Below are positions 11,134 through 40,447 of a stretch of DNA of 64,000 bases, one piece after another. The DNA lies in the NCBI GenBank assembly GCA_963693055.1, contig OY843751.1, forward strand, positions 960,001 through 1,024,000, in the 5' to 3' direction. The stretch's first letter is position 1. The number at the start of each line of letters is the position of its first letter. A program made the translations under genes and the position numbers. This DNA comes from a bacterium. GTDB taxonomy: Bacteria; Zhuqueibacterota; Zhuqueibacteria; Residuimicrobiales; Krinioviventaceae. A model generated the notes under the pieces. The model saw only the letters and a list, made by a program, of their open reading frames with translations. It did no database searches and was not told where the DNA came from.

Positions 11134-11153
11134 TATACGTTGGAGTATTGATC

Positions 11154-13235: not shown

Positions 13236-13257
13236 GATTGAATATATATATTTCAAG

Positions 13258-13292: not shown

Positions 13293-13485
13293 TATCTAAA
13301 ATACTTGTAATTAATAGAAAAAAAGATTAATTTAAGTGTCTATCTAAAGGCTTTAAGAGATATCTTAAAGTGTTACTTTAGGACGTGTCAGGTATAGGTG
13401 TTATAAAATAAAAAATTTTTCGGCAATATTGAAAACAAACCCTATTGTCAATATATTGTAATAGGTTGTTTGAAGGTTTGTCAGG

Positions 13486-14679: not shown

Positions 14680-14683
14680 GACT

Positions 14684-16291: not shown

Positions 16292-16297
16292 GGACAG

Positions 16298-17437: not shown

Positions 17438-18714
17438 GTAACAGGAGCGGTTTGTTGAAAGTATTAATGATACACAAGTTTCACTATATTGAGGGCGGTG
17501 CGGAACGTTATGTTTTTAATCTGAGCGAGTTGTTGGAGAAAAAGGGGAATACGGTTATCCCTTTTTCAATGCATCATCCTAAAAATATAGAATCTCCTTA
17601 TGCTGATCATTTTGTATCTTATTTTAATCCGGACCAGTTGCGTAACAGTGAATCTTTGATGCAGACATTCAAAGTTGCAGGACGTGTGGTTTATAACAAA
17701 GAAGCACAAAACAAACTGGCAGAATTGATTAAAGAATCAAAACCGGATATTGCACATATACACAGTATATATCATCATATATCTCCATCTATATTTAAAA
17801 CATTAAAAGAATTTAATATACCTGTTATTCTTACTTTGCATGATTTTAAACTGGTTTGTCCCAATATCGTATTTCTGGATGGAAAAGATCGGGTTTGTGA
17901 AAAATGTCAGGGAAAATATTTCTGGAATGCTACATTCAAGAAATGTTTTAGAAAATCTTATGGTGCAAGTCTGCTGGCGACTGTGGAAGCTACCGTACAT
18001 TATCTGTTAAAGTCTTATCGTGGTAATGTAGACATGTTTCATTCACCCAGTGCTTTTCTGGCAGAGAGAATATCAAAATACGGTTATGGGCACAAACCGG
18101 TCAAGGTTTTACCCTATACTCTGGATGTTGAAGCGTTTGAACCCAAACATGATCCCTCTGATTATTTTGTCTATGCCGGCAGAATGTCTGTTGAAAAGGG
18201 TGTTTTGTTTTTGGTAGATGCAATGCGCCAGGTAAAAGGAAAACAACTGTACCTGATTGGTACAGGTCCTTTGGACGAAGAAATTCGTACCCGGATACAG
18301 AAATATGGATTGGATAATGTTAAGCAATTGGGTTACAAATCCGGAAAAGAACTGCAAGAGATTATTTCCGGAGCGGCATTTACGGTAATGCCTTCATTAT
18401 GTCATGACAATTCACCACTGGCAATCTATGAATCCTTGTCTCTTGGCAATGCAATTTTGGGTTCTGACAATGGTGGAATACCGGAATTAATTAATGATGG
18501 AATAGATGGTTATATTTTTAAAGCGGGCGATGTGAATGATTTTGCGGCCAAAGCGGAAAAGTTGATTAATGATCCTCAGGCTGCAATTGACATGGGGAAA
18601 CGGGGTCGGGAAAAAGCCCTGCAAATGTTCTCACCTGATGAACACTATGAACAGATAAAAGCACTATACGAACAAACCATAACGTTAAAAAAGAAAGGTG
18701 CTGCCGGTAAATAA
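17416..18714 (+). CDS. GT4 glycosyltransferase
   Basis: 'GGAERY', 'TLHDFKLVCP', 'GRMSVEKG' and 'DNSPLAIYES' motifs; exact start uncertain. Confidence 0.9.
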   Translation: MDIQESVSNRSGLLKVLMIHKFHYIEGGAERYVFNLSELLEKKGNTVIPFSMHHPKNIESPYADHFVSYFNPDQLRNSESLMQTFKVAGRVVYNKEAQNKLAELIKESKPDIAHIHSIYHHISPSIFKTLKEFNIPVILTLHDFKLVCPNIVFLDGKDRVCEKCQGKYFWNATFKKCFRKSYGASLLATVEATVHYLLKSYRGNVDMFHSPSAFLAERISKYGYGHKPVKVLPYTLDVEAFEPKHDPSDYFVYAGRMSVEKGVLFLVDAMRQVKGKQLYLIGTGPLDEEIRTRIQKYGLDNVKQLGYKSGKELQEIISGAAFTVMPSLCHDNSPLAIYESLSLGNAILGSDNGGIPELINDGIDGYIFKAGDVNDFAAKAEKLINDPQAAIDMGKRGREKALQMFSPDEHYEQIKALYEQTITLKKKGAAGK

Positions 18715-18928: not shown

Positions 18929-21900
18929 ATGTTGAAAAAAACGACAACCCTCACTTTTCAGATTGCTATTGCGGTCCTCCTGAGTCTTACCGCATTTGCA
19001 TTTGCGCAAACCAGTACAGATGACTTTGACCGTCCTGATGGCGCTCTGGGTGCTAACTGGACCTCTGATACCGATCTGGTAATTGCAAGCGGAAAATTGC
19101 ATAACCAAAGTGCAGGTTCTGACTGGTTACTTGCTATATATGATGGCAATGGAACCGTCACTAATCCTGATGAGGTCACAATTAATTGGGCTACTACCGG
19201 TGACGGAGTACAATGGGGTGGCGCAGCATTTGTGAATACCAATGCATCCGTTGGGGCTGCAAACGGTTACCTGGTCCAATATCGGCTCAGCTCTCCTAAC
19301 AAAATCCGTTTATGGAAAATTACTTCCGGCGCATTGGATGTAGGTGCAGGTATTGTTGATGAAGTAACCGCATCCGGTTCTGCTCCCACTGCTGATGCTC
19401 CTTTGAAAGTGAATCTTGACCCTGCAACCTACACATTACAGGTTTATGTGGATGATGTGATTGCCGGATCAGTTCAAGATGCAGGTGCTTCATATGATCT
19501 GACCAATCGTTTTGGTGCTGTGGTACTGGCAAGTGGTTCAAGCCTGAATAATGATGTTGAAGATTTTACCGTTGGCATTGAAACTCCGGACAATATTGCA
19601 CCCAATGCAGTGTCTGATTTGAGTGCAACAGCTACCGGAGCTTCTACAGTATTGCTGGAATGGACAGCAAGCGGAGATGACGGAGCTACCGGGCAGGCTT
19701 CACAATATGATATTCGTTATTCAACAAGTCCTATTGCCACCAATACAGACTTTTCAAATGCACAACAAGTAAACGGAGAACCTACACCTCAGATAACCGG
19801 CTCTGACGAGTCTTTTGTTGTGAATGGATTGAATGCCAGCACCACTTATTATTTTTGTCTAAAGGTTGGTGATGATAATGGCAACTTTTCTGCTATTTCG
19901 AATTCAACCTATGCCGCTACAGAAGAAAGTGGCGGGACAGGCAGCGAAGGTGGATTACTAACAGTCACAGATGATTTTGAACGTGCTGATTTGGGTACCA
20001 GTTGGGCTGCAACAGCCAAACACCAAATCAAAAATGGTACGTTAGATGTTATTGATGGTACATCAACAGACTGGAATAACCTTGCCGTATATAAAGGTAA
20101 CCGTTCAGTGAGTCCTGCGGGTGTTTCAATTTGGCTGGATGATACGGAATGTAGTGCTAGTGGTGCGCTGGCTGTAGGTACAGCTATTTTGCTGGATTCC
20201 CCTTCAAGTAGTGCCAGTGGTTATTTTATTTTACGACGTACCAGCAGTCTTGAATTGTGGGATTTAAGCAATGGTGTTGTTGGAGCAGGTGGACGTTTGG
20301 CACGTGATTCCAATCCAGACCAACCTGATCCTACTCCTGGAGATAGAATTAAGGTCATGGTAACCGGTGATGACGATACCGGTACTATTACTATAGATGT
20401 ATATGTAAATGATTATATGGACGGACAGTTTATATTAAATGGTACCGAACCCTCTACCTGGTATGCAGGTGTTTTTCAACATGGTTCTTATGCAAATAAT
20501 ATAGATGCTTTTACTATATATTCTGATGGCAGCAGTGCTGAAATGATCAGTGAATATTATGGAAATGGCCAGGCTGGTCCTATTCAGGCAACTTTGAGTG
20601 ATTCCATTGCCGTTCAGGTTACCGATGGTTTGGGTAATCCTGCAGCGGGCACTGTTGTTAATTTTGATATTGTAAATGGTGATGCTACACTGAGTATTGA
20701 TAGTTATGATTACGGCGGTTTGATCTGGAAAGAAGTTGAAGATGGTGCTATTCTTTCTCCTGCTGTTACTCAGGCAGATGCAAACGCCTCAAATGGTACT
20801 TTTGTATTAACTCCTAATGATATACAATACTCCCGACAGGGTGGTTCGGTTATGAACCTGTATGTTCCTGAAGCGGGTAATTTTAATGTATGGTTACGTG
20901 TAATTGCTCCTTCGTCCACCTCAAATAGTTTGTTTTTGCGGGTTAATGATGGCGATACAACAGAAGTGAAATGGGGTAACACCTGGACTTCCTGGCGTTG
21001 GGAGATGCTTAAAAATATTAGTCTGGCAAAAGGATTTAACCAGGTCAGTATTTTAACACGTGAAGAAGGTACACAATTTGACAAGATTGTGCTTGCTGAA
21101 ACCACCAAGCAGCCCGGTTACACACCTACGGGAACGGGCGGTTCAGGATCAACTTTGCCAAACGTTACGGATGTGAATGGTATTGCATATACATTTGTAA
21201 CCTTTTTAACCAATGCTGACGATGATGTTGTAATTGAAGCTTCTGCTTTTAAAGATGATGGCTCAACTGCATTAACCGGCTCTCCGGTAACATTTACTCT
21301 TGATCCTATATCAGGTTCCGCTGTTTCTATTGTCAGAGACCCCGCGCAGCCGGATACTCTTTTGGGTGAACCCATTCAGCAAATGACAACGCCATTGCGT
21401 GCCTATGTACGAGATTCTTTTGGCAATGGTGTTAGCGGTGTTTCTGTAAGTTGGGCGATTACAGAAGGAACCGGTACTTTATCTTCATCTCAAAATACAA
21501 CGGGTAATACTGGTACTTCTGAGACCTATTTAACGTTGTCAGCACAAAATACACCTTATACTATACAGGCAACAGCTGCAGGTCTTTCCGGATCTCCGGT
21601 CAGTTTTTATGTAAAACCGGGTGATCCCCCAACGGAAATACAGCAAACCAATCCTACAACACAGGTAGCTGGTGATGCTGGTGTTGAATTGACAGAAATT
21701 TTAACAGTTCGCGTAATTACCGAAGATGGTACGCCATTTCCGGGTTTTCCGGTAAATTATGTAGTAACCGAAGGTGATGGAGCACTGAGTTCTGAACTTG
21801 GCTCTGAAAACGCTACTGAAATACAGATCCTTTCTGATGAAAACGGTTATGCCCGCGCGCGTTGGGTATTGGGAGATGAACCCGGTCTCAATCGTGTTGA

Positions 21901-24900
21901 AGCACAAGCAGAAGGATTGACCAACAGTCCAATTTTATTTGAAGCTTTGGGTGAAATTGGCGATCCTTCCTTATTAACCATTATTGATGGTAATAATCAA
22001 TCTGGTCCTTTGGGACTTGCATTGCAAGAACCTTTTATTGTTAAATTAACTGATCAGGTTGGTAATGGTATCCCAAATCAGAATATAGAATATCGTATAC
22101 TTCAAGGTTCTGGTGCAACGTTGGGATCTTCAGGATTAACAGTTCGGAACGTAAAAACTGATGCAGAAGGTGTTGCCCGGGATACGTTGGTGATTGGTAA
22201 TCAGGTAGGCCAAACACACCAGGTGCAGGTATCTGTTGCAGGTAATTCTTCGGTATCCGCTCAAATCTTTTATGCAACTGCTACAGCAGCAATTGCAAGT
22301 GAAATTGTCTATGTTTCTGGTAATGGTGTCAAAGTCGGAACCGCTTATAATTATCAGAGTTCTACCGTGAATACTACATTGGCTCAGGACTTTATCGTTC
22401 AGGTGAATGGTCCTTTTGGTAATGATCCTATTGCCGGCCATGCGGTTACATTTAGAGTTGTAAGCGGTGGTGGTAATTTTTATGGTAATAACAGTACAAC
22501 AGTCAGTACCGGTCCTGATGGAAGAGCGTCTGCAAGACTGACATTGGGTTCTGTAGCTGGCGACAGTGTGCACATAGTTGAAGCTACGGCAAACCGTGTT
22601 GATAATACAACCTTGATGTTAAACAATGCTCCCATCATCTTTAAAGCTGATGGGACGGCATCTGATCCCAACAAGATCACCAAAATGGACTCTACAGACA
22701 ACCAAACCGGTATTGTTGGCGATCCGCTTACTAAACAGGTTCAGGCACTAGTTTCTGATATTTATGGTAATCCTATTAGTGGTCACCAGGTGACTTTTCA
22801 GATTATAAATAATGGTGGCGCATTGCAGGGCTCTACCGGTGAACCGGCTCAGGCCAAACAGGTAACGACCAACGCAAAAGGTATTGCTTCCATTATTTGG
22901 GTTATGCCCACTACACCCGGTCAGGTCCAGATGCAGGCTTTTGCAACAACTGCTACAAGCAATCCTTTGACGGGCAGCCCCATTACATACACCGCTTATG
23001 CCGGCGTTGATGCTGCATATGAAATGGTCAGAGTAACCGGTCAAGATTTGTCTGGTATTGTGGGACAACCACTTGCAGAAAATGCAAGCGTGAAAATTGT
23101 TGATCAATACTCGAATGCAGTTTCCAGTTACCCTGTAACCTTTACCATTACCGATGGTAATGGTCTTGTGAATGGCAGCAATCAGGTTACCGTTCAAACC
23201 GGCACGAATGGAATTGCTTCAGTAGAGTGGACATTGGGTACCGAAAGTGGTTTTGAAAATAATGCTATGGAAGCCACTTCTAGTGTATCAATGAATAATA
23301 AAGAAACCTTTACCGCATCCGGATTGGCTGATGTAGCTTTCCGTATGATTGCGGATTCAACCTATGATACCTTTGGTATTGTAGGCGAGTTGCTGGATAC
23401 ACCCATCAAGGTATTGATTGTTGACCAGTACGATAACCCTGTTGCGGACTATCCCGTAACATTTGAAATTGATGATATTGATGATAATGTAGGTTTTATT
23501 GAAACTGAAGGTACCTTGTCGAAAGTAGAGTCTACTGATGATGACGGTTATGCTCAAATTCGTTGGGGATTGGGACCAAATCCTGGTTCTCAAAACAACA
23601 AACTGACCGTTACTACTAAACGGAATAACATTCATTTAATCAATTCTCCTTATAATGGATTTGTAGTTTCCGCACAGGCGGGTAACGCTTACCAAGTAAT
23701 CAAAGTAACCGATGATGTAACCAAAGAGCTTAGCTCTGTTCATGGCAGCACTTTGCCCGAATATTTAAAGGTCAAGGTTGTTGATAAATTTGGAACTCCT
23801 ATCGCAAGACATCCGGTAACATTCCAGGTATTGAGCCGACTGGTTGCTGATGGTGGTACCCTTGACGGCAGTGTAGATACCGTAAAGGTTAAAGAGACGG
23901 ATTCTAATGGTATTGCATCTGTACAGTTTACTTTGGGTCTGAATGCCGGAAGCAAGATTAATCAGGTCCAGTATGTTGCTGAATTAAATGGCGAGAACCT
24001 TGAAGGCTCACCAGGCACATTCGAGATAACTGGTCTGTCTTCTACCGCCACCCAAATTGTCAAGGTAGCTGGTGATGAACAGCCAGACGGTATTGTGGGC
24101 CAGTTCTGGGATATTCCATTGCAGGTTGCTGCTAAAGATAAAAATGGAAACTATGTTGCCGGACAACCGGTCAGTTTCAAGATTTTACCCAAAGAGGATT
24201 TAATTGAAGAAACACTGGGTTCGTTGGGCGCCGGAACTGCAACCGATACTACGATTTTAACCAACGCTGAAGGACTTGCCATTATTAACTGGCGTGCTGG
24301 TCATCTGGTTGGTGAATATCAGGTCCAGGTTACTTCCTTTGCACTTGCAGAACTTGCCGGTTCACCCATGACTTTTACTGCGACTGCTTTTGCAGAAACC
24401 ACAGACGCAGACCAGTCCATGATTTCAGTCAATCCGGACAGTCTGAATGTTTCTGATGGTTCAATCAGATCTACAATCGTAGTAACATTAAAAGATAAAT
24501 ATGGTAATCCGGTTCAAAACAAGGGTGTTACTTTACAAGCCTCCGGAACCGGTAATATCATCACACAACCGGCTACAGCATCTAATTCAAATGGTCAGGT
24601 AACCGGTTATATTGCATCTGAAAATTCTGGCTTGAAAAATATTTCAGCCCGCGATATTAATAATGAAGTTGATATGGTAGACAAGGCCCAGGTTTATTTC
24701 CGTGCTTCCGAAGCAGACAGGATTGTTAAACATCCGACTGCGAATGGAGACGGACAAAAACGTAACGTGGGTACAGTACTTGAAAATCCACTTCAGGTTG
24801 TTGTTGAAGATTCGTACGGCAACCCCATTCCCAATTTCCCGGTAGTGTTTACAGTTACAGGAGCACAAACGGGTGGTCAGATTGTTGAAAATGTAAATGT

Positions 24901-27154
24901 AACAACTGATGAAAATGGTGTTGCATCTCGTTATTACAGACTTGGTACGGTTAAAGGTATAAATACAATCCAGGTGACTGCACAGGGCATATCCGGTTCT
25001 TCGGTGATTTTCAATGTTGAAAGTGATAATCCCGTTGATTTGCAGAAACCCGTAATTGTAAGTGGTGACAGCGCTCGTGTTTCTCCTGCCCAGCCATTGC
25101 CCGAAGACCTGGTTGTTCAAGTTGTAGATGAACGCGGTTGGCCGGTTTGGAATGAAGGTGTATTGTTTGAAGCATTGAGTACAAACGATGGTCAAATAAC
25201 CAGTAGTAATCCACACAATACCGATTGGTATGGATACGCACGCGCGCAAGCCCAGGTTGGTACCAAAGTGGGTATTAATCTCTTTAGCGCAAAACTTGAA
25301 GAATATCCTGGTAAAGGTACAGTTACATTCTATGCATGGACTGTATCTGCATCTACTGCCAAGTATCTTACTTTTGTAAGCGGACCTACCAGTGGTGTTG
25401 TAGGTCAATCTTTGAGTAGTCCGGTCATTATGAAAACTACGGATGAATATGACAACCCGGTACAGAATGTTACCGTAACATTCCTGGTTGTGGATGATGC
25501 CAGTGTTGACGGTGCAGGTACTTTGCAAGGTGGATTGAAATCCGTAACAAAACAAACAGACAGTAATGGTGAAGTAAGTATATTTTATACACTGGATACA
25601 GTAAGCGGAATAAACAAGATCCGTGTATCTTCATTAAATCTTGAACCCAGTAGTTATGTGGTAACCATAACAGGTAATGCGGATTCACCCTACCGTATGG
25701 AGAAATTCTCTGGTGATAATCAGCGTGGTGAAATGAGTAAACACTTGTTTAATCCTATCTATGTTATGGTACGTGACAGATACGGCAACCCGGCTCCTGG
25801 TGGTGTTGTGACCTTTACCGTAACTCAGGGTGATGGCAGCATCGATGGCGATCAATCCGTACAATCCAATTCAAACGGTCTTGCCAGAGCATACTGGGTA
25901 TTAGGCCCGCGTCCATATGCTGTAAACAACAGTGTTCAGGTTACCAGCTCTTATTTGCAGGGAGGTCCTTTGACTTTTAATGCAACAGGAGATGATCAAA
26001 ATTATCCTGAATTCTCATCATTGCCAAGTAATGTTGAAGTATTTGAGCTTGCAAATATAAGGCTCGAAATTTCAGCTACTGATGAAGATGGCGAAAACGT
26101 ATTCTATAACTCTCAGAATCTGCCATCAGGTGCAAGCTTTGAGATGGAAAGTAACAACAAGTACTATTTCAAATGGACACCGGGACTTGATGTTGTAAAC
26201 AGTCCGGATGTCAGCCAGACATTCTACCCGATCTTTATTGCTCAGGATGATCATGATCCCTCTGGTCGTGTAAAGGATTCGGTCAAAGTTGTAATCAAAA
26301 ATTACAACCGTCCGCCCGAAATTACTAAATATACACCGGAAGCTTCCAGCTTGGATTGGAATCAGGATGAAGTAGCGAGTATTTCTTTTAGTATTGAAAC
26401 CAATGATCTGGATAATGATCCTTTGACTGTTACCTGGTATGTGGGAGACACCCAGGTTGAAGAAGGTCATAATTTGACATTGACTAGTGGTGATTATGAA
26501 AATGGTGTCTATACTGTTAAAGTTAGCGTGAGTGATCAGTTTGCGACCACTGAAAAGTTATGGCAGGTTACTACATCATTAGTCGAGTTGAGTAGTTTTA
26601 GCGCTGTTTCTGAACCTTATAAAGGGATTACCGTTGAGTGGGAAACAGCATCAGAAATTGCAACCGCTGGATTCAATGTATTACGGAGTCTTTCAGAAAC
26701 CGGTACATTTGAAAAAATCAACGAGGATATGATTCTGCCCAACAAGGAAAAGATCTATAGTATTCAGGATAAAGAAGTTCAATCCGGGCAGACCTATTAT
26801 TACAAGCTTGAAGATGTTAGCCTTAGCGGACTTGCAACCCATCATGGTCCTATCTCTGTAGAGGCGCCGGTTCCGAAAAAGTTCTCGTTATCTCAGAACT
26901 ATCCGAATCCGTTTAACCCGGTTACGACTATCCAGTTCGAGCTGCCTAAACATACAGATGTTACCATAGAGGTCTATAATATTATGGGACAAATGGTGAA
27001 TCAACTGATCAATACTCGATTTGAAGCCGGATACCACACCGTTCAATGGGATGGTACAAATTCGAATGGTATGCGGGTTGGTTCAGGTGTTTACTATTAC
27101 CGAATTATAGCCGGAGATTTCAAGAATGTTAAAAAGATGGTATTGTTGAAATAA
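18929..27154 (+). CDS. Giant (2741 aa) secreted Ig-repeat surface protein/adhesin with a T9SS-type/FlgD-Ig C-terminal domain
   Basis: GGAGG RBS and signal peptide (AFA|Q). Two 'DDF(D/E)R' beta-sandwich domains flank an FN3 domain, followed by a CBM-like insert and many Big_1/invasin-like repeats ('D.YGNP....V.F', 'TD..G.A'). Ends with 'LVELSSF' and 'QNYPNPFNP...KKMVLLK'. Confidence 0.88.
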   Translation: MLKKTTTLTFQIAIAVLLSLTAFAFAQTSTDDFDRPDGALGANWTSDTDLVIASGKLHNQSAGSDWLLAIYDGNGTVTNPDEVTINWATTGDGVQWGGAAFVNTNASVGAANGYLVQYRLSSPNKIRLWKITSGALDVGAGIVDEVTASGSAPTADAPLKVNLDPATYTLQVYVDDVIAGSVQDAGASYDLTNRFGAVVLASGSSLNNDVEDFTVGIETPDNIAPNAVSDLSATATGASTVLLEWTASGDDGATGQASQYDIRYSTSPIATNTDFSNAQQVNGEPTPQITGSDESFVVNGLNASTTYYFCLKVGDDNGNFSAISNSTYAATEESGGTGSEGGLLTVTDDFERADLGTSWAATAKHQIKNGTLDVIDGTSTDWNNLAVYKGNRSVSPAGVSIWLDDTECSASGALAVGTAILLDSPSSSASGYFILRRTSSLELWDLSNGVVGAGGRLARDSNPDQPDPTPGDRIKVMVTGDDDTGTITIDVYVNDYMDGQFILNGTEPSTWYAGVFQHGSYANNIDAFTIYSDGSSAEMISEYYGNGQAGPIQATLSDSIAVQVTDGLGNPAAGTVVNFDIVNGDATLSIDSYDYGGLIWKEVEDGAILSPAVTQADANASNGTFVLTPNDIQYSRQGGSVMNLYVPEAGNFNVWLRVIAPSSTSNSLFLRVNDGDTTEVKWGNTWTSWRWEMLKNISLAKGFNQVSILTREEGTQFDKIVLAETTKQPGYTPTGTGGSGSTLPNVTDVNGIAYTFVTFLTNADDDVVIEASAFKDDGSTALTGSPVTFTLDPISGSAVSIVRDPAQPDTLLGEPIQQMTTPLRAYVRDSFGNGVSGVSVSWAITEGTGTLSSSQNTTGNTGTSETYLTLSAQNTPYTIQATAAGLSGSPVSFYVKPGDPPTEIQQTNPTTQVAGDAGVELTEILTVRVITEDGTPFPGFPVNYVVTEGDGALSSELGSENATEIQILSDENGYARARWVLGDEPGLNRVEAQAEGLTNSPILFEALGEIGDPSLLTIIDGNNQSGPLGLALQEPFIVKLTDQVGNGIPNQNIEYRILQGSGATLGSSGLTVRNVKTDAEGVARDTLVIGNQVGQTHQVQVSVAGNSSVSAQIFYATATAAIASEIVYVSGNGVKVGTAYNYQSSTVNTTLAQDFIVQVNGPFGNDPIAGHAVTFRVVSGGGNFYGNNSTTVSTGPDGRASARLTLGSVAGDSVHIVEATANRVDNTTLMLNNAPIIFKADGTASDPNKITKMDSTDNQTGIVGDPLTKQVQALVSDIYGNPISGHQVTFQIINNGGALQGSTGEPAQAKQVTTNAKGIASIIWVMPTTPGQVQMQAFATTATSNPLTGSPITYTAYAGVDAAYEMVRVTGQDLSGIVGQPLAENASVKIVDQYSNAVSSYPVTFTITDGNGLVNGSNQVTVQTGTNGIASVEWTLGTESGFENNAMEATSSVSMNNKETFTASGLADVAFRMIADSTYDTFGIVGELLDTPIKVLIVDQYDNPVADYPVTFEIDDIDDNVGFIETEGTLSKVESTDDDGYAQIRWGLGPNPGSQNNKLTVTTKRNNIHLINSPYNGFVVSAQAGNAYQVIKVTDDVTKELSSVHGSTLPEYLKVKVVDKFGTPIARHPVTFQVLSRLVADGGTLDGSVDTVKVKETDSNGIASVQFTLGLNAGSKINQVQYVAELNGENLEGSPGTFEITGLSSTATQIVKVAGDEQPDGIVGQFWDIPLQVAAKDKNGNYVAGQPVSFKILPKEDLIEETLGSLGAGTATDTTILTNAEGLAIINWRAGHLVGEYQVQVTSFALAELAGSPMTFTATAFAETTDADQSMISVNPDSLNVSDGSIRSTIVVTLKDKYGNPVQNKGVTLQASGTGNIITQPATASNSNGQVTGYIASENSGLKNISARDINNEVDMVDKAQVYFRASEADRIVKHPTANGDGQKRNVGTVLENPLQVVVEDSYGNPIPNFPVVFTVTGAQTGGQIVENVNVTTDENGVASRYYRLGTVKGINTIQVTAQGISGSSVIFNVESDNPVDLQKPVIVSGDSARVSPAQPLPEDLVVQVVDERGWPVWNEGVLFEALSTNDGQITSSNPHNTDWYGYARAQAQVGTKVGINLFSAKLEEYPGKGTVTFYAWTVSASTAKYLTFVSGPTSGVVGQSLSSPVIMKTTDEYDNPVQNVTVTFLVVDDASVDGAGTLQGGLKSVTKQTDSNGEVSIFYTLDTVSGINKIRVSSLNLEPSSYVVTITGNADSPYRMEKFSGDNQRGEMSKHLFNPIYVMVRDRYGNPAPGGVVTFTVTQGDGSIDGDQSVQSNSNGLARAYWVLGPRPYAVNNSVQVTSSYLQGGPLTFNATGDDQNYPEFSSLPSNVEVFELANIRLEISATDEDGENVFYNSQNLPSGASFEMESNNKYYFKWTPGLDVVNSPDVSQTFYPIFIAQDDHDPSGRVKDSVKVVIKNYNRPPEITKYTPEASSLDWNQDEVASISFSIETNDLDNDPLTVTWYVGDTQVEEGHNLTLTSGDYENGVYTVKVSVSDQFATTEKLWQVTTSLVELSSFSAVSEPYKGITVEWETASEIATAGFNVLRSLSETGTFEKINEDMILPNKEKIYSIQDKEVQSGQTYYYKLEDVSLSGLATHHGPISVEAPVPKKFSLSQNYPNPFNPVTTIQFELPKHTDVTIEVYNIMGQMVNQLINTRFEAGYHTVQWDGTNSNGMRVGSGVYYYRIIAGDFKNVKKMVLLK

Positions 27155-27174
27155 GGAAAATTTTCCGGTAGGTT
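27155..27174 (+). repeat. Left terminal inverted repeat
   Basis: GGAAAATTTTCCGGTAGGTT, starting immediately after the TAA stop of the giant gene. Confidence 0.85.
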
Positions 27175-27203
27175 TTGGAAAAAAGGCGGTTATTTCATAT
27201 AGT
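27175..27203 (+). promoter_or_regulatory. Putative sigma70-type promoter inside the element's left end
   Basis: TTGGAA-N17-TATAGT directly abutting the left inverted repeat. Confidence 0.5.
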
Positions 27204-27259
27204 ATTTACTAGAAGTAACCGGAAGTCAAACAAAGATTTCAAAACTTACCGGAGGACAA

Positions 27260-28087
27260 ATGTACAATACTCGTAGTAGTTTGTATGACAGGATATTAGA
27301 AAAAACACCCGAGCAAGTATTCATCAATTCTTTACGAAAAGAATTTGAATTATCACCGGCAGAAAGTAAAGGGATATTGGATTTAGCCAAGCAGTGTTTA
27401 TTTGGCGAGGTTCCCCAGACAGTTGGTAAAATAAAATATATCTGCGCATCCACCAAGGCAAAACATGGCAAGCCCCTGGGTGAGCAGGAATTGAAAGAAG
27501 TAGAGTTAACACTGGATGCCGGTGTAGAAGATTTAAATGTATTAAAAGAAAGCGGTCCCAAGGCACTGCGCCAGTTAAAGGTCTTACGATTGACCGAAGA
27601 AGCCTGGGATCAGGAAGGTTCTTTGACACAAGAGGATTTGGCCCGGATCCTCCAGGTTACGAGTCGCACTGTACGCCAGGATATAAAGTCTTTGCAGACT
27701 GATGGCAACTTTATTCACACGCGCGGAACAGACCATGACATCGGTCGGAGCTTGTCACACAAAAGCCACATTATTGAACTGTATTTGCAGGGAGACACAT
27801 ACGATGCAATTATTCGTAAAAGTCGTCATAGCGCGTTTTCAATAAAACGATATGTGTGCAGCTTTGGCAGGCTGTTGTTATTACTGAATCATGGTATGCA
27901 GGATATCAAAGAGATCAGTCGGTTATTAGGCCAAAGTGAGCGTTTGACCCGTGAGTACCTGGATATTTTTGAGCATCATAAACAGGGTGACAAATGGCCG
28001 CCGATCTATGTAGAGTTATTGGAGCAATTAAAGGTGTTATACCCCTCGAAAAAAAAACAAACCAAGGAGGGGATCGATGAAGACTAA
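27260..28087 (+). CDS. DUF1670-like protein (multi-HTH), element ORF A
   Basis: 'RLTEEAWDQEGSLTQEDLARIL', 'TRG..HDIGR..SHK..IIELYLQG' and 'HS..SIKRY' match my recollection of DUF1670; GGAGG RBS. Confidence 0.75.
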   Translation: MYNTRSSLYDRILEKTPEQVFINSLRKEFELSPAESKGILDLAKQCLFGEVPQTVGKIKYICASTKAKHGKPLGEQELKEVELTLDAGVEDLNVLKESGPKALRQLKVLRLTEEAWDQEGSLTQEDLARILQVTSRTVRQDIKSLQTDGNFIHTRGTDHDIGRSLSHKSHIIELYLQGDTYDAIIRKSRHSAFSIKRYVCSFGRLLLLLNHGMQDIKEISRLLGQSERLTREYLDIFEHHKQGDKWPPIYVELLEQLKVLYPSKKKQTKEGIDED

Positions 28088-28892
28088 GCCTTTAAATCGT
28101 TATGAATCAATAGCTAAGCGTAGCTTTCAAAATGCGATTATTCGATTACTGGAAGAAAATTATAAAATGCTGGGAAGCCACAAAGTCATCCGGATGATTG
28201 CAGAAGATATTGTCGCATTGCAAAATGAATTTTATCCAGAGCTGGAAAAGAAAAGTTTTGGTCAGATTATCTGGCGGACAACCAAAGCGACAAACCGAAA
28301 GCCAAGCTATGGCACAAAAGCGGAAGATTATGAGGTTCAGACAGTTGTGCTACCGTTGGTAACAGATGCGGATATTGACAATCGTATCAAAAGCCATTAT
28401 TCTTATCCCCCAAAAGATGGCAGTGCTAATTATGAAAAACAAACAGAACGGGATATTAAAGTAATGGCGCGGTTATGCAAGAGTGCGGCAGAACAGGGCG
28501 GCTGGTTGACAGGTGCAGAACTCAGTGTATTGTTGAATCGCTCATTAAACACTATTGGTCGGTATATGACAATTTATCATGAAACGCATGATGATATATT
28601 GCCGACTAAAGGAATGATGCTGGATCAGGGCAGTAAGCCGACGCATAAAGCCGCAATTATAGATTTGTACGAGCAGGGATATCCCGAACCGGATATCGCC
28701 CGGATTACAAATCACACAATTGAATCAACGAGTCGGTATTTAAAGAGTTACAAGAACGTAAAATCATTATTGGAAAAAGGTTTTAATTTAATGGAAATGG
28801 TAAGAATAACCGGATTAGGACGGAGTACAATATTACAATACCGTGATCTGGTTTATCATTATCATTCAGATTTAATACAAAAGAAAACTTGA
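28077..28892 (+). CDS. DUF1670-like protein, element ORF B (paralog of ORF A)
   Basis: 'RLCKSAAEQGGWLTGAELSVLL', 'TKG..LDQG..PTHK..IIDLYEQG' and 'HT..STSRY' align with ORF A; AAGGAGG RBS. Confidence 0.75.
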   Translation: MKTKPLNRYESIAKRSFQNAIIRLLEENYKMLGSHKVIRMIAEDIVALQNEFYPELEKKSFGQIIWRTTKATNRKPSYGTKAEDYEVQTVVLPLVTDADIDNRIKSHYSYPPKDGSANYEKQTERDIKVMARLCKSAAEQGGWLTGAELSVLLNRSLNTIGRYMTIYHETHDDILPTKGMMLDQGSKPTHKAAIIDLYEQGYPEPDIARITNHTIESTSRYLKSYKNVKSLLEKGFNLMEMVRITGLGRSTILQYRDLVYHYHSDLIQKKT

Positions 28893-28929
28893 AAATTTGA
28901 AAAGGAATTAATAGGTTAGGTTGTCATTG

Positions 28930-28980
28930 TTTTTCAGCTAACTCCAGTCGCCCTACGGGCTCCTTTCGTTAGCTGAAAAA
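28930..28980. other. Nested hairpin in the element's 3' non-coding end
   Basis: 13-bp stem TTTTTCAGCTAAC/GTTAGCTGAAAAA enclosing a GCCC-TAC-GGGC inner hairpin. Confidence 0.7.
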
Positions 28981-29007
28981 ATGAATAAATGTTCTAATCT
29001 TAAAAAC

Positions 29008-29027
29008 AACCTACCGGAAATATTTCC
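29008..29027 (-). repeat. Right terminal inverted repeat
   Basis: AACCTACCGGAAATATTTCC followed by TAA. Confidence 0.85.
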
Positions 29028-29060
29028 TAAACGTAAATAAAAATAAACTCCAGATCAAAC

Positions 29061-29099
29061 AAAAAAAAGCCGGCATCTTTAAGATGCCGGCTTTTTTTT
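29061..29099. terminator. Bidirectional Rho-independent terminator
   Basis: A8-GCCGGCATCTT-T-AAGATGCCGGC-T8 between convergent genes. Confidence 0.92.
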
Positions 29100-29120
29100 G
29101 TTACAACTATTATTTTATTC

Positions 29121-30043: not shown

Positions 30044-33000
30044 TTATTTTTCATATTTCCAGATGAAATCAATACCCGTGGTTTTGTCATCCCCTTTGGT
30101 TGCCTGTATGAAAAAATGACGATTCATTTCATATTCCAGAGACACCTGTTCGGAAACCAGTTCATGGGTTTGCCCGAGATTAAAGCCTTGAATATAACTT
30201 AAATACAGGTCATTGGTTATATATTTTCCCAAAACAATCGAGTTTTTACGCCAATTGTCACTGCCCTGAAATTCAATTACATCCAGATTCAGTTTTTCTT
30301 GCAGAGATCGCGAAATAGGTGCTGTGAGACGTCTGGCAACCCAGTTTTCAAGCGATGCGGTTGACAAGAGACCATTATTCTCCTGAAGTTGTTTTTTTTC
30401 ACCATAAGACAACTCGTTCGTGCTACGTCCAAACAAGAGGTAGGAAATAGCATCCGCTTCTTCAATAGATTCGTCATCCATAAGAAATGCAATTTGAGGA
30501 GATTCAGCATTGCCGGTTATATTGATATAGAGCTTTCTTTTCTCGCTATAAATATCCCGAAAGGTATGAAGGGCAGAAATATCAATTTCAGGGTTTATTT
30601 TCTTTTTCCCTGTAAAATTAATCTCGCCACTTTCAATTTGAAAACGTTTACTGTAAAGATTGATTGTGCCGCGAAGGGTTTCAATCGTACCGAATAGTGT
30701 TATCTGGTTACCGTTTGAAACCAGATCTAAATTACCGCCCAGTTCAATATTCAAGTCATTATTGCTGATCCAAAAGTTTTTATCAAACCGGATAGAGACC
30801 CTTGATTTTATATTGGATTCCAGCGTAGTCTTGGTTTTTACAGCTAATGTATCCTGACTGACGGTTTCCAAAAGGGCAGGAGATGTAGTACCATTTTTTT
30901 TATTCTTTTGTAACAATGGCAAATATATTCGCGATTGCAGAATGTTTATGTTACCATTCAACTCGGGAGTCGAATAATTTCCCTGTAAATCTAGCTCACC
31001 TGAAAATGTTAATCCCAGTTTGTTGCTTTTTGCCAGGGGGTAATTCAAAGGCGTTATATGTATACTAAGATCTTTTGGTTTAAAATCTGGTGTCAAATTG
31101 AAATTTCCATTCAATCTGAAAATTCCATTATCTTTTTTAGATTGAAAAGAATGAATTTGTACAAAGTTGCTGTCTATTTGTATATCACTATTCAAATTTG
31201 GGACCTTGATTGCGTATTCCGGGATGTCAATTTGTGTTTGTAATAATTTCAAATATCCATCAAGGTAGGCATTGCCGGCTATTTTTTGATACTTGAGATT
31301 AAAAGACATATCACCCTGAATGTTAGCAGTGGGGGAGACAAGTGCATTAATCATGGCCATGTTCATTTTATCTGTCGATATTTCAACTTTTAAATCTTTA
31401 TTGATCAGAGGGATTGTATCGTTATCTGTAACGGCCCCTGTCTGTATTGTTCCGGATACTGTTAAAAGCTGTTCCGAATTGTTTGTCAGGCTTGACTGGG
31501 TAGATAACAAGCCATCTTTGTATTGTATGGTACCACTCAGCCTTTCCAAAGGGGTATTATAGAAAACCGGAGATTCTATAGAAATATTGCCATCCAAAAC
31601 TGGGGTCGTTGTATTTCCAGTCAAATCAAGCTTTGAATACAGCAAACCCTTGTATTGCTTTTGTGGAAAATAGGGATTTAAAACCTTGTCTAGATCGAGT
31701 CCCGAGATGTTTAACGACAATAAATGATTACCGCTTTTACCCATACTTCCGTCAATAGCTATGGACTGGTTCCTGCTGAAAAGTTCAAAATCTGAAATAC
31801 TGAATGCCGAGCTGCTAAAACTGGAAGACGCTTTATTTGTTAACTGCCAGATCTGATTTGCTTGCAATATGGCTAAACTGTCAATACTGGCTGTTAACGT
31901 ATCCATCAGGTTTATTGTACCCATCAGATCCAAAGTTGTTGAATCATTTAATTGGATATAAAGATCATGGGCCAGTGATTTATCTTTAAACACGAGCTGT
32001 ACATTTGTTGAATCAACAGTGATTCCTGATATTCGTGCTTTGCCGGCATTTAACTGACCATTAACGGATAGATCAGAATTATTGATATAGACATCTGCAT
32101 TTCCGGTTAATACTGAAACCGTGATACTGTCCAGTTTTATGTTTTGCAGATTTATTTTATTTTTAATATTTAACGAATCCGGCTGGCCTGTAATATTACC
32201 TGTGATCTGACCTTGTGAACTGGAGTGCATGCCAGTTAATGCATAAAGATCCTGAGGGTACAAGGAATACTTGAAACCCATGTTCCGGTTGTGATCCAGT
32301 GCGCCTGCCAGATTAAATTGACCCAATGGGGATGTTGCTGTCAAAGAATCAATTTGAACGGATTGATCTCTTTGTTCTCCATTTAACGTGATTGAATGAA
32401 ATGGTATATCTCTGATGGTAATAGAATCGGACTGGATTGAAAATTGGTTTGTAAAGCTGTTCTGACTCCATGAGCCGGCATTGGTAAGTGATAGTGATAT
32501 GTCTGAAGATATCTCGGGTAAGAAACGGTCCAGCTGCAGGTTCTCCACCAGTCCTTTGAGTGTGTAGCGGATTGTATCTCCCAGTGTTGTTTCATTGCTT
32601 AGATGCAAATCCGCAATGTTGGATGTTCCCTGAACATTTAAAATAATGTCTTTTTGTTTTTTACTGCCCTCTATTAAAAGGTTTTTAATTTGATATGTAT
32701 TAAAATCCGAGTTGTTAAATTGCGCCAAAAGTTCTAGTTCAGAATTATTGATGGAAATATCTTTGCCTTGTACCTGAATGTTTCCATTAATGTTTGTTTT
32801 GGGCAAGTTCAAAGAATCAGTCCAGCGAGTCAGGTTGATCCGTTTCAATTTTGTTTCTAGTGTGTATGAAAAGGGAGATGTGTATGGAGATACCTGGCCA
32901 GAGAGTGCGAACGATTGTGAATTACGAGAGAAATCAGAACGGATTTGCATCTCGTTATCCTGGGTTTCGATATAAATATTGGCAAGCAAATTACCATTAG

Positions 33001-33817
33001 GTGAAAGCACGGGGAGCCATTGTGCAGCTTTGTTGAGAGATAATGTCAGGTTTGGCATGGACAGGTTTAAAAGCTGGTTATTTTCCAGATCATATAAAAG
33101 ATCTGCATTTACTATTGAAGAGTCGGTTTTGGCATGCAAATCGTTTATGTGCATGAGAGAATCCATCATTGCAATAGTGCAGGAAAATTGATTCAGTGAT
33201 GTCTTGTATGCTGGAATGTTAAATGTAAGAGCATTGATTGTAACATCAATGTTTTTTTTCGATACAACAAGTCCTGCTAAAAGTTGGAAATTATTAACTG
33301 CAACAGTGTCTTGGGGCAGCAACTGAATTATTTGAAAACATCCACGGGCAATTTTAATATCTGGCGCTGTAATTTGAAAGGGTAACGAGTTATTGCCGGA
33401 TTCAGGTGTCTGGGTCGTATCCGATTTTGCGAGTTTTTGCCAATTGAGTTTGTTATTTTCTTTTTCCAGATTTATAAACAACGAATCTAAATGGATAGTC
33501 TCTATCTGCAACCGGTTTTTTGCCAATTCGAATAAATTATAGCTGATTTGTAATTGGTCCGTATATAACAATGTATCAGTATGTGTTGAAATTCGGATTC
33601 CATCAAGTGAAAGTTCTTTAAATAAATTTCCTTTTATTGCATCCACTTGAACTAGGGCATTCAAATTTTTATTTAAACGGTTAAGCACCAGGGTCTTTAG
33701 TTTATCTTTAAACCACACCGTCTGACTTGATGCAATAACAATGATCAAGAGTATAAAGATTATTCCGAGCGTAATGAGCAAGGAGAGCAGGATTTTTTTT
33801 ATGATCTTAGAACGCAT
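30044..33817 (-). CDS. tamB: TamB/AsmA-like translocation and assembly module protein
   Basis: N-terminal anchor, long beta-taco-like repeats, DUF490-like C-terminus ('LGKYITNDLYLSY...GIDFIWKYEK'); adjacent to an Omp85 gene. Confidence 0.85.
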   Translation of the reverse strand: MRSKIIKKILLSLLITLGIIFILLIIVIASSQTVWFKDKLKTLVLNRLNKNLNALVQVDAIKGNLFKELSLDGIRISTHTDTLLYTDQLQISYNLFELAKNRLQIETIHLDSLFINLEKENNKLNWQKLAKSDTTQTPESGNNSLPFQITAPDIKIARGCFQIIQLLPQDTVAVNNFQLLAGLVVSKKNIDVTINALTFNIPAYKTSLNQFSCTIAMMDSLMHINDLHAKTDSSIVNADLLYDLENNQLLNLSMPNLTLSLNKAAQWLPVLSPNGNLLANIYIETQDNEMQIRSDFSRNSQSFALSGQVSPYTSPFSYTLETKLKRINLTRWTDSLNLPKTNINGNIQVQGKDISINNSELELLAQFNNSDFNTYQIKNLLIEGSKKQKDIILNVQGTSNIADLHLSNETTLGDTIRYTLKGLVENLQLDRFLPEISSDISLSLTNAGSWSQNSFTNQFSIQSDSITIRDIPFHSITLNGEQRDQSVQIDSLTATSPLGQFNLAGALDHNRNMGFKYSLYPQDLYALTGMHSSSQGQITGNITGQPDSLNIKNKINLQNIKLDSITVSVLTGNADVYINNSDLSVNGQLNAGKARISGITVDSTNVQLVFKDKSLAHDLYIQLNDSTTLDLMGTINLMDTLTASIDSLAILQANQIWQLTNKASSSFSSSAFSISDFELFSRNQSIAIDGSMGKSGNHLLSLNISGLDLDKVLNPYFPQKQYKGLLYSKLDLTGNTTTPVLDGNISIESPVFYNTPLERLSGTIQYKDGLLSTQSSLTNNSEQLLTVSGTIQTGAVTDNDTIPLINKDLKVEISTDKMNMAMINALVSPTANIQGDMSFNLKYQKIAGNAYLDGYLKLLQTQIDIPEYAIKVPNLNSDIQIDSNFVQIHSFQSKKDNGIFRLNGNFNLTPDFKPKDLSIHITPLNYPLAKSNKLGLTFSGELDLQGNYSTPELNGNINILQSRIYLPLLQKNKKNGTTSPALLETVSQDTLAVKTKTTLESNIKSRVSIRFDKNFWISNNDLNIELGGNLDLVSNGNQITLFGTIETLRGTINLYSKRFQIESGEINFTGKKKINPEIDISALHTFRDIYSEKRKLYINITGNAESPQIAFLMDDESIEEADAISYLLFGRSTNELSYGEKKQLQENNGLLSTASLENWVARRLTAPISRSLQEKLNLDVIEFQGSDNWRKNSIVLGKYITNDLYLSYIQGFNLGQTHELVSEQVSLEYEMNRHFFIQATKGDDKTTGIDFIWKYEK

Positions 33818-35615
33818 GACCAACACTCAGGTGATATTCAAATGTTGTTTTGTCATCAAATATTGGAGAAGCCATATCAACTCGGATAGGTCCAATAGGA
33901 GTATGGAGACGAATTCCAACACCGGGAGAGTAATGCAGATCATTCATGTCAAAATAGAGACTTGAAGTCCATACGTTACCAAAATCCATAAAAATGACCC
34001 CTGAAAGTCTGCTCCAGACCGGGAAACGCAGTTCAATGCTGTTTTCGATATAACTGTTTCCACCCAAAGGTTTTCCCTGAGAGCTTTTGGGCCCCAGTTC
34101 TGATCTGGCCCACCCGCGGACCGAACTGCTGCCTCCAATAAAGAAACGTTCTTCAATAGGGGCAATGCTGTTTTGCCAGGTTTCAATGACTCCCCATTTT
34201 GTTTTAAGGGCCAGTACAGTAGACTCGTTAATTTTCCTAAAAAAATGTGCTTCAGCGAGAAAACGGTGATAATGAAAAGAGCTGTTAAAACCCAGGCCTG
34301 AAATTGTATATGTTGCTGATAAATAAGATCCCGAATTGGGGGTAAACATGGGAACGGATGTATCACGTGTTATACCCAGGGTTATGCCACTTTTATTATA
34401 CAAAGAGATATCCCGGTTTGCCAGTAACTCTTCTTTGGTCAAAGAGTTTGTATAAAGTTTTGCCTGTTCAAGTGAATAATTCATAAATATATCAATATCT
34501 GAAGATACATTCTTGTGTACACTACTGCTAATACCTGTACGTCTGATTCGGTATGCGGGTTCCCTTTCTTTTCTGAGGAACGGCTCAATTGTCAATGAGG
34601 TCCTCTTCCATACAAATGCCGGGTGCACCCATTTGAGGTTAAGATTATATGGTTCAAGATAAGAGTGCTTTGCATTTAATGTAATTCGCCTTACACTGCC
34701 CAGAAACCCAATTTTTCTGACTTCAGCAAATAGACGGACCTGGTCTTCCTTACCATAACCAATACCTGTTTTAGTACGGAATCGTGCGGATTCTTTAACA
34801 TTGATGGAAACCGGGATTTGATTATTTGTAGTAGAATCCAGCAAGGCATTTACAGATACGTATTGAAATACACCAAGTTCATATACCTGTTGCTGAGATT
34901 GCCCAAGCTCGTTTTGTGAAAAATTATCACCACTGCTAAATGAAATCTGTTTTTTTATATAATATGATGGAATTTGTTCGTTTTGAACAGAAATTTCACC
35001 AAAAAAACTTTTTTGGCCTGTGTTAATGCTGAAAACAACTTGAACAAAATTATCTTGTACCGATAATTTAGGATCAACCAAAACATATGGAAATCCATTA
35101 TTGACATAATATGAATTAATTAGTAACAGGTCTTTTTTGTATTGATTGTCTGTAAATCGTTCCCCTTTGATAAGCCTTAATTGTTTTTGTATGTCCTGAG
35201 GAAGAGACGTGCTGGAATCTTTACCAGAATTCGGATTAATATTAAAAATAACATTTGAAATGATAATGGGTTGGTTCTCATGGACTTTAATGTCTATAGC
35301 AACACTATTATCTATTTTTGTTACAGCATCAACATCAACATTCAGGAACCCCTCTTTTTTGTAAAAATCCTTAATACTGGCAATGTCATTTTGTAATAAC
35401 GTTTCATCAAAAGGGAGCAGGTCTCTCCAAAAAAACAGTCTTTTCAGCGTTCCCCGTTCTTTTAACTGCATCTGATTTTTGATCTGCCCGGAAGAAAAAG
35501 TCTCATTCCCCGTTATATTGATTTTTTTGACCGGATATTGAGCAAAGATTGCAACAGGATACAGAACAGCCAGCAGAATCGCGATCCTGAAAAATTTGGA
35601 AAATACGGATTTCAT
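33807..35615 (-). CDS. Omp85/TamA-BamA family outer membrane protein
   Basis: POTRA-like repeats, 'FFIGGSSSVRGW' (VRGF/Y-type motif), 'TPIGPIRVD' and C-terminal 'GHAF'. Start moved to the ATG with a signal peptide (MKSVFSK..IFA|Q). Confidence 0.88.
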   Translation of the reverse strand: MKSVFSKFFRIAILLAVLYPVAIFAQYPVKKINITGNETFSSGQIKNQMQLKERGTLKRLFFWRDLLPFDETLLQNDIASIKDFYKKEGFLNVDVDAVTKIDNSVAIDIKVHENQPIIISNVIFNINPNSGKDSSTSLPQDIQKQLRLIKGERFTDNQYKKDLLLINSYYVNNGFPYVLVDPKLSVQDNFVQVVFSINTGQKSFFGEISVQNEQIPSYYIKKQISFSSGDNFSQNELGQSQQQVYELGVFQYVSVNALLDSTTNNQIPVSINVKESARFRTKTGIGYGKEDQVRLFAEVRKIGFLGSVRRITLNAKHSYLEPYNLNLKWVHPAFVWKRTSLTIEPFLRKEREPAYRIRRTGISSSVHKNVSSDIDIFMNYSLEQAKLYTNSLTKEELLANRDISLYNKSGITLGITRDTSVPMFTPNSGSYLSATYTISGLGFNSSFHYHRFLAEAHFFRKINESTVLALKTKWGVIETWQNSIAPIEERFFIGGSSSVRGWARSELGPKSSQGKPLGGNSYIENSIELRFPVWSRLSGVIFMDFGNVWTSSLYFDMNDLHYSPGVGIRLHTPIGPIRVDMASPIFDDKTTFEYHLSVGHAF

Positions 35616-35626
35616 CAAATTACAGG

Positions 35627-36511
35627 TTATTGCCCTGTTGTTTCGGTAAAGGGAACCGGCAGGGGAGAGCGAACATGCAAATCTCTTTGCGGAAAGGGGA
35701 TTTCTATCTGATTTTCTCTGAATTTTCGTACAATGTCGCAATTGATATCCGATCTTACATAATAATGTCGTTTGGGATCCTTGATCCATACACGCAGCAT
35801 CAGGTTCCACGAAGAATCTCCAAACTCCATAAACAACACTTCGGGGGCAGGAAATTTCAATACTTCATCATTTTCTTCTGCAACATTTTTTAGTACAGAT
35901 AGAACCAGATCAAGATCCGAATTATAAGATACACCAATATTCAGGTCAAGCCGGACTTTGGGATCACCATGTGACCAGTTGACAACATTTGACGAGATAA
36001 ATTCAGTGTTGGGAACAATATAAGAAATATTATTGAGTGAGCGTATCGTTGTAGAACGGATATTAATTTCTGTAACATCACCCTCAGTATCGCCAACAGT
36101 AATACGGTCACCCACTTTGATTGGCTGTTCAAATAGTAATATAAGCCCTGATATAAAATTGGAGGTGACATTTTGTAAACCAAAACCAATACCTACGGAT
36201 AATAAACCGAATATAACTGCCAGTCCGCTAAGATTGATGCCAATACTGTTAAATGCAAAGATAGCGCCAATAATAACCAGTATATATTCAAAGATACGCA
36301 TCATTACATAACGTTTACCTTCCTGAATGTGAAATCGGGACAGGACCTTGTCTGAAAACCAGCGCGTTGTTGTTTTGGAAAGATATAAAAATGCCCCAAA
36401 TATGAGAATGAATTTAATCAGAGAGCTTAGGGAAATTTTTGTATCTCCCAATGAGAATAGCACAAAGTTTAATACATCATTGAATTTTTGAAAAATATCG
36501 CCTAAGCCCAT
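35627..36511 (-). CDS. mscS: Small-conductance mechanosensitive channel (MscS family)
   Basis: 'GIGFGLQNVTSNFISGLILLFEQPIKVGD' and 'IPFPQRDLH' motifs. Confidence 0.92.
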   Translation of the reverse strand: MGLGDIFQKFNDVLNFVLFSLGDTKISLSSLIKFILIFGAFLYLSKTTTRWFSDKVLSRFHIQEGKRYVMMRIFEYILVIIGAIFAFNSIGINLSGLAVIFGLLSVGIGFGLQNVTSNFISGLILLFEQPIKVGDRITVGDTEGDVTEINIRSTTIRSLNNISYIVPNTEFISSNVVNWSHGDPKVRLDLNIGVSYNSDLDLVLSVLKNVAEENDEVLKFPAPEVLFMEFGDSSWNLMLRVWIKDPKRHYYVRSDINCDIVRKFRENQIEIPFPQRDLHVRSPLPVPFTETTGQ

Positions 36512-40419: not shown

Positions 40420-40447
40420 GCCGGAATTTTATTCCGGCTTTTTTTTT
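40418..40447. terminator. Terminator between convergent genes
   Basis: AAGCCGGAAT-ttt-ATTCCGGCTT followed by a T run. Confidence 0.8.

Follow-up and report, generated by a model that had tools for sequence, protein, structure and literature searches.

Introduction

When directed by TnsD to attTn7, Tn7 inserts at the 3' end of a conserved coding sequence, leaves the encoded protein unchanged and produces a 5-bp duplication, and integrative elements mobilized by tyrosine recombinases restore the 3' end of their target gene across a shared overlap of 6 to 8 bp. We describe here an insertion sequence (IS)-like element of 1.9 kb, found in a bacterial window of 64,000 nucleotides (contig OY843751.1, positions 960,001 to 1,024,000, forward strand; coordinates below are those of the window unless a genome contig is named), whose only genes are two overlapping open reading frames (ORFs), A and B, of the family DUF1670. 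It lies at the end of a gene whose product carries a C-terminal domain (CTD) of the type IX type, a tail resembling a secretion tag. In target logic the element is like Tn7, but it has neither TnsABC-like genes nor a 5-bp duplication, sits inside the last codon with the stop replaced, and has hundreds of paralogous targets where Tn7 has one. With the tyrosine-recombinase elements it shares the supply of the target gene's end and conserved Arg, His, His, and Tyr residues in a similar order; it differs from them in lacking a profile match to any of 33 such domains and an overlap of 6 to 8 bp, in its small size, and in encoding two paralogues.

Among smaller elements, the IS1202 family has terminal repeats, a DDE enzyme, and long duplications. 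These are small elements with strict target choice (dif/pdif) and a fixed orientation, according to PMC10132070; the strictness and fixed orientation described there are matched by the present element, whereas target, repeat position, and enzyme are different. Closest in end layout is the IS1111 family (IS110 superfamily; DEDD enzyme and seekRNA), which PMC11187229 describes with subterminal inverted repeats, asymmetric terminal extensions, specific targets, and one orientation per family. End layout and target specificity are alike, but the element is without a DEDD domain and encodes two helix-turn-helix (HTH)-rich paralogues instead of one enzyme, its extensions are 4 and 7 to 8 nt long around a core of one or two bases, and some of its members leave no room for a downstream guide RNA. 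IS1-, IS3-, and IS630-type elements offer a further comparison: PMC1088944 describes runs of 8 to 9 A as slippage sites in IS genes, and both such a conserved run and the two overlapping ORFs recur here, together with tandem HTH modules and weak paired-domain matches (Z 4.7 to 4.8). ORF B of the element is, however, a paralogue of A with no DDE domain, the repeats are not terminal, and there is no TA or other duplication.

Results

That the locus is a real mobile element is practically certain. The genome, a single 6.5-Mb contig, holds seven full copies of this family (F1) at seven different genes, five of which differ from the window copy by 3 to 4 nt and one by 177 nt. Three left-end remnants and one right-end remnant are also present (G000:C1 1730453, 3844069, 5975654, and 333453), and a genome-wide search for the end motif, allowing up to 3 mismatches, returned solely these seven copies and four remnants. 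In a genome of the same genus (G001), the orthologous site is empty (C3:3048021-3048025). G001 has its own copy at another CTD gene, with ORF B frameshifted near its end; a reciprocal empty site for this copy was not found in the window's genome. An earlier note on the window had read the locus as an unclassified IS-like element whose sole genes are a DUF1670 pair and had suggested a search for further copies with different flanks and for an empty site in a relative; the seven copies at seven genes, the empty site in G001, and the absence of these ends elsewhere in the genome bear that reading out.

Relative to the empty allele, the insertion measures 1,886 bp (27151..29036, plus strand), with ends that are ambiguous within a shared AAATA, present at the left (27149..27153, plus strand), at the right (29035..29039, plus strand, followed by the original downstream host sequence), and in the empty allele. 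The left inverted repeat (27154..27174, plus strand) holds a 12-bp palindrome at 27155-27166 and the right one (29008..29028, plus strand) a 12-bp palindrome at 29016-29027; the two repeats are complementary at 19 of 21 positions, where the best 21-mer match in 60 random window pairs was 12 to 16. In all seven genomic copies the left repeat is preceded by AAATAA and the right repeat is followed by TAAACGTAA. As both are constant, the repeats are subterminal and the TAA at the right belongs to the element, where it begins a 7-nt terminal extension, TAAACGT (29028..29034, plus strand), that is identical in 7 of 7 copies.

This comparison redraws the ends. The earlier note had placed the element at 27152..29030, between 20-bp terminal inverted repeats (18/20) and a TAA target duplication: the repeats are genuine but lie inside the ends in all seven copies, the insertion runs on to about 29036, and the duplication is refuted by the seven-copy comparison and by the empty allele in G001, which has only AAATA in common with both junctions. 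Removal of the element plus one TAA, proposed as the restored site, would leave 10 bases more than that allele has. The left TAA is indeed the stop codon of the 2741-amino-acid (aa) gene, and the host's bidirectional terminator does follow the right end (29058..29102, no strand assigned), outside the element and present at the empty allele too.

The crossover falls at the last codon of the host gene, within its first two bases (27149-27150, with which the left AAATA opens), and the third base and a new stop are provided by the element. Where the target is the Lys codon AAG, the left side reads AAA and the right side keeps AAG; third base and stop therefore come from the element, and the host protein is consequently unchanged. 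Eight elements are informative for the first two bases, having target codons that do not start with AA, although a scan that selected for a second base other than A supplied four of them, and two have the same right flank. The second base matches on both sides in all eight. The first is mismatched in four (L054, L122, L132, and L163), always with the target base at the left and A at the right, which rules out a strict 2-bp duplication. The junctions thus exclude TAA or two duplicated bases and point to a crossover with one shared base. Terminal inverted repeats with a DDE-type duplication of at least 2 bp are likewise absent, given subterminal repeats, the first-base mismatches in 4 of 8, and a third base that differs at AAG targets. 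Elements L059, L122, L132, L157, and L163 lie at CTD genes that end in Arg, and a TAATAGA extension is present in several of them; these Arg-codon lineages, most of them from the selected scan, suggest that the shared base has switched from A to G.

The target in the window is the last Lys codon of a 2741-aa Big_1/fn3 protein gene (18929..27154, plus strand), the final base and stop of which are supplied by the element and the product of which matches FlgD_ig and Por_Secre_tail, both above cut-off. With a profile seeded from 12 occupied genes, we identified 241 CTD genes in the genome, of which 159 encode Lys and 57 encode Arg at the last codon. Fourteen are occupied (seven by F1 copies, three by remnants, and four by copies of a second family, F2, described below), and all 14 end in Lys (p=0.012 against the Lys/Arg pool). 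Of the remaining F2 copies, one shares its gene with an F1 copy, beneath which it lies, and the other is inserted off-target at a poorly scoring site. The earlier suggestion that TAA targeting spares genes can accordingly be kept as regards the intact host protein, but the target is the last codon of CTD-type genes and not stops in general.

The signal extends well beyond the junction. The genome contains 40,757 occurrences of AAATA by itself, and a 26-bp profile derived from other genomes does not suffice, with 173 CTD ends among its top 4,776 sites. A 77-bp profile that includes the G-x-Y codons of the CTD at -63 places 152 CTD ends among its top 157 sites, though it was trained on CTD genes of other genomes and is to that degree circular. 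The G-x-Y codons (27086..27094, plus strand; 63 to 55 bp before the crossover) are likely to be the distal part of the target signal: GG..TA at this spacing is found in 14/14 occupied and 116/145 unoccupied Lys-ending CTD genes (p=0.075), and GG is invariant in 20/20 sites from other genomes. A TCCGGT-like Ser-Gly codon pair was considered as a sequence read in the target and rejected, because codon choice at this pair varies among the occupied genes. The window contains a second CTD gene (48235-49866), which has the same AAATAA end and is unoccupied.

Element ends follow one geometry, in which 4 nt and a 12-bp palindrome open the element, a palindrome and 7 to 8 nt close it, and no gene other than A and B lies between. 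The palindrome sequences differ between subfamilies while the geometry stays the same, and this includes two subfamilies with a TGCCA-type palindrome (L043 and L045) that sit in loops of short palindromes resembling repetitive extragenic palindromes and not in CTD genes. Their right noncoding end is 18 to 20 nt long and their left end 117 to 148 nt.

DUF1670 and this end structure occur together repeatedly. All 26 DUF1670 matches in the genome fall into 13 pairs, seven F1 and six F2. The F2 family comprises six mutually identical copies (G000:C1 56483, 511486, 1348082, 2354510, 3999196, and 6090200; 1,852 bp between the motifs used), with protein about 33% identical to F1, the opposite orientation relative to the target gene, a different palindrome, and an 8-nt extension. 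Genome G167 has seven copies with 0 to 4 differences and a divergent eighth. Within the phylum, 33 of 167 genomes contain DUF1670, usually in pairs and in many cases on contigs scarcely longer than the element; matches to the family also occur in a Methanosarcina control genome and in clusters of several phyla, and a close homologue of ORF B is labeled candidate-division KSB1. At 25 other DUF1670 pairs, the inverted repeats anticipated by the earlier note were located by script in 22 and by eye in one more, leaving two without. A metagenome scan with the end motif gave 53 loci, 10 with ORF A downstream and four with both ends readable, and a tblastn search of plasmids with F2 ORF A as query gave no match. 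In assembled contigs of one sample (runs X6-X8), possibly the source of the window, depth over the element is about 6x that of its flanks. A joint in these contigs at which the sequence goes back was discarded as a circle junction, since it starts in a CTD-motif stretch outside the element.

Elements also stack. An F1 copy stands on the end supplied by another DUF1670 element at the same gene (G000:C1 506714-511594; also L044 and L163), because each insertion recreates the target. CTD stops commonly bear left-end remnants of about 15 to 100 bp that lack DUF1670 genes (several loci between L120 and L171), and the single right-end remnant lies behind a CTD gene that is truncated; such remnants are probably scars left by deletion or products of imprecise excision.

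Both ORFs (A, 27260..28087, 275 aa; B, 28077..28892, 271 aa; plus strand) match DUF1670 with scores that far exceed the Pfam cut-off, and the two proteins are paralogues (31% identity over 139 aa; profile probability 100%), in agreement with the earlier description of two overlapping, HTH-rich paralogous ORFs as the sole cargo. Ratios of nonsynonymous to synonymous substitution in two comparisons, more distant ones being saturated, were 0.082 and 0.058 for A and 0.090 and 0.078 for B, so that both ORFs are under purifying selection. A model of A (predicted local distance difference test 87, predicted template modeling score 0.60) is almost all helical, and its predicted layout consists of N-terminal helices, a beta-hairpin, a winged HTH, and two repeated HTH modules. 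In A, residues R110, D126, R155, H167, H190, Y198, and Y233 are conserved, and in B, R132, D183, H190, K191, H213, Y221, and Y255. Common to the two across 29 pairs are R110/R132, Q118/Q140, D160/D183, H167/H190, K168/K191, H190/H213, Y198/Y221, and Y233/Y255. At an overall identity of 21 to 31%, R155 is present in 85/85 A sequences, being invariant in A only, and H167, H190, and Y198 are kept at 98 to 99%; the two His and the Tyr are retained in A and B alike, and also in each half of 63 natural fusions. Y198 and Y233 occupy equivalent positions of the two repeated HTH modules (profile probability 95%).

A run of nine A (28049..28057, plus strand) in the region of the A/B overlap is a candidate transcriptional-slippage site. 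Runs of at least seven A near the end of A occur in 23 of 24 pairs, compared with 213 of 3907 genes, and the B frame is open across the run in 22 of the 24; B is in the +1 frame relative to A in 14 pairs and in the -1 frame in 10, a pattern consistent with slippage during transcription (PMC1088944). The conserved run suggests that an A-B fusion may be made by slippage, although runs of this sort would also be expected from a basic tail rich in Lys. Proteins in which A and B are naturally fused, and others with three repeats, occur and contain no other domain. Proteins P0016, P0021, P0024, and P0036 and P0069, P0083, P0094, and P0118 have either three repeats (degenerate, A-like, and B-like; 930 to 952 aa) or a degenerate repeat before A.

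The noncoding parts of the element hold a promoter-like site (27175-27203, plus strand) and, internally, the TCCGGT-type end motif twice more (27216-27224 and 27246-27254, minus strand), which are likely to be extra binding or autoregulation sites, and a 3' stem-loop (28930..28980, plus strand; z of -5.07 for 28893-29039). No Rfam family matched the element at gathering score, and the 3' hairpin was rejected as a guide RNA of the family on this ground and because it is missing from one relative's element and shared with an IS3-like element. In that unrelated element, which is present in two copies (G000:C1 2152973 and 2227145), the 24-nt core of the hairpin stands between ORF and end on a lower stem that differs.

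Database searches gave no known enzyme. Pfam, NCBIfam, PHROGs, and PDB-sequence searches returned DUF1670 and HTH matches only and no DDE/RNase H domain, and the RNase H fold is absent from the Foldseek and VIA-align listings, in which residues 1-96 are barely covered. Any HUH occurs in just 2/85, 2/56, 10/58, and 6/63 aligned sequences, which speaks against a conserved HUH motif; no resolvase catalytic domain was found, the resolvase HTH (PF02796) alone matching ORF B; and neither TnsA/B/C nor TnsD/TniQ is encoded within the ends, which enclose two DUF1670 ORFs alone. The earlier remark that no DDE/RNase H, HUH, or serine-recombinase motif is visible agrees with these profile searches and counts. 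IS110 DEDD (PF01548) has no match in the whole, 100%-complete genome, and an atlas search with residues 1-120, DUF1670 clusters excluded, gave no usable match. Three likenesses were set aside: homology to tyrosine recombinases, seen by eye in the His/Tyr spacing, is unsupported by profiles; a winged-helix match to Topo VI-A (Z 5.7) is generic, the helix concerned lacking a conserved Tyr; and the Topo V and Cre rows (E 0.2 to 0.55; Cre in Foldseek only at E 0.24 and 0.55) are not significant. As the earlier note supposed, DUF1670 appears to be without an assigned function: we found no literature on DUF1670 or PF07900, in a search that lay outside ISfinder, subscription papers, and supplements, where a listing may have escaped notice.

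Other features of the window lie apart from the element. A polysaccharide/glycosylation cluster (79-18714) with a MOP flippase, several glycosyltransferases, and several ORFs without a strong NCBIfam match stands directly upstream of the target gene. Further along are a TamB/BamA-like pair (30044-35810), a beta-CASP nuclease below family cut-offs (40446-41840), and a 1001-aa ORF with a weak match only that lies between two distinct glutamate dehydrogenases (49947-55757). Numerous further multicopy repeats in the genome contain long ORFs and resemble conventional IS, and merged repeat intervals number 71 in all.

Discussion

Taken from sequence and predicted structure, the explanation we favor is that the A/B pair is itself a new site-specific recombinase that probably moves the element. 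With slightly less assurance, DUF1670 A/B can be proposed as an unrecognized recombinase class in which winged-helix and HTH modules surround an Arg/His/His/Tyr center, which needs one base of homology and makes no duplication, and which has been retargeted during evolution between the last codons of CTD genes, secretion-tag genes that number in the hundreds, and the loops of short palindromes. A and B would act as a heterodimer or as a slippage-made fusion, and their HTH modules would bind the end palindromes; that the palindromes differ by subfamily while the geometry is kept fits binders encoded by the element. The proteins would then join the ends into a circle, a predicted intermediate, which would be inserted by conservative strand exchange requiring one shared base. 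The conserved codon positions could be read by A/B over about 65 bp of the target, for which the reading of glmS by TnsD is an analogue. Catalysis might proceed through a covalent tyrosine link involving R155, H167, H190, and Y198 in A and H190, H213, and Y221 in B. This phosphotyrosine chemistry is the weakest step and, on its own, we regard it as somewhat doubtful, because Y198 and Y233 of A stand at corresponding positions in the two repeated HTH modules.

Several observations weigh against a recombinase of this kind. The tyrosines may, for the same reason, be structural. Comparison by hhalign with 33 tyrosine-recombinase domains gave probabilities of only 0.2 to 1.5%, with no Phage_integrase match in Pfam; Foldseek returned nothing at E<=0.001 in PDB or BFVD; and VIA-align found winged-HTH regulators only (best Z 6.4), with residues 1-96 barely covered. 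The fold results are no proof of a new fold. No circle or empty-site junction was seen in the assembled contigs of one sample, contigs being prone to lose rare forms. Element L059 has CG on both sides of its junction, which a one-base core can account for only if inheritance or mutation is invoked. A fusion of A and B is further disfavored by the start and ribosome-binding site that B possesses and by the mixture of +1 and -1 frames. The DUF1670 pairs counted here are related, and the counts are not independent; and G167 does carry IS110 genes.

A rival reading is a division of labor in which A and B are targeting and end-binding adaptors and a conserved host enzyme, such as XerC/D, a topoisomerase, or a repair nuclease, cuts and joins. 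All structural matches are to DNA-binding HTH proteins, tyrosine recombinases were present in 21 of 21 genomes searched, and one-base homology resembles that of single-strand exchange systems. Invariant His, Arg, and Tyr residues outside typical DNA-reading positions in both subunits are hard to place in an adaptor, however; DUF1670 spans many phyla and Methanosarcina, which would make the host factor near-universal; and the end palindromes vary between subfamilies. We consider this arrangement unlikely. It is far less probable still that the element is nonautonomous and moved in trans by a known transposase, of the IS110/IS1111 type or with a DDE domain, with DUF1670 as cargo or regulator. 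Subterminal repeats and asymmetric extensions as in IS1111 (PMC11187229), the many conventional-looking IS in the genome, and the hairpin core common with an IS3-like element would accord with such a dependence. Against these stand the lack of an IS110 DEDD gene in a genome with six identical F2 copies, ends that no other element in this complete genome carries (the earlier note had named a match to a known IS acting in trans as the finding that would make these passenger genes), a right end in L043 and L045 that is too short for a guide RNA there, junctions without a DDE-type duplication, and strong purifying selection on both ORFs.

A different question is how the site is found. A new enzyme could conceivably be led to it by the CTD transcript or the nascent peptide, or insertion could be wider, with only harmless events at CTD ends surviving. 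The insufficiency of the 26-bp local profile, the codon periodicity of the target signal, and the one F2 copy in six that lies off-target with a low score are compatible with this. Yet the 77-bp DNA profile, partly circular as it is, ranks CTD ends almost exclusively at its top, intergenic insertions would be equally harmless and are nearly absent, the L043 and L045 elements lie in palindrome loops and not in genes, and all 14 occupied sites end in Lys although 57 of the 241 CTD genes end in Arg. Guidance by transcript or peptide, or survival of the harmless, is therefore judged rather improbable, and direct reading of the DNA by A/B is the proposal we retain.

In conclusion, the exact ends, target rule, and candidate residues defined here bring a direct assay of this element within reach. 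If A/B proves to be a site-specific integrase, one made of two proteins and so compact would be of interest as a tool. The targeting is unusual in that a whole protein-domain gene family, here 241 genes, serves as a safe harbor that is entered with base-exact precision and leaves the host protein intact. To our knowledge, the known prokaryotic transposition chemistries are few, namely, DDE, DEDD, HUH, serine, tyrosine, and Cas1. A widespread and recently active element of this size that fails the sequence test for every enzyme tested would, if the proposal is true, add a new chemistry to these and give DUF1670 a function.

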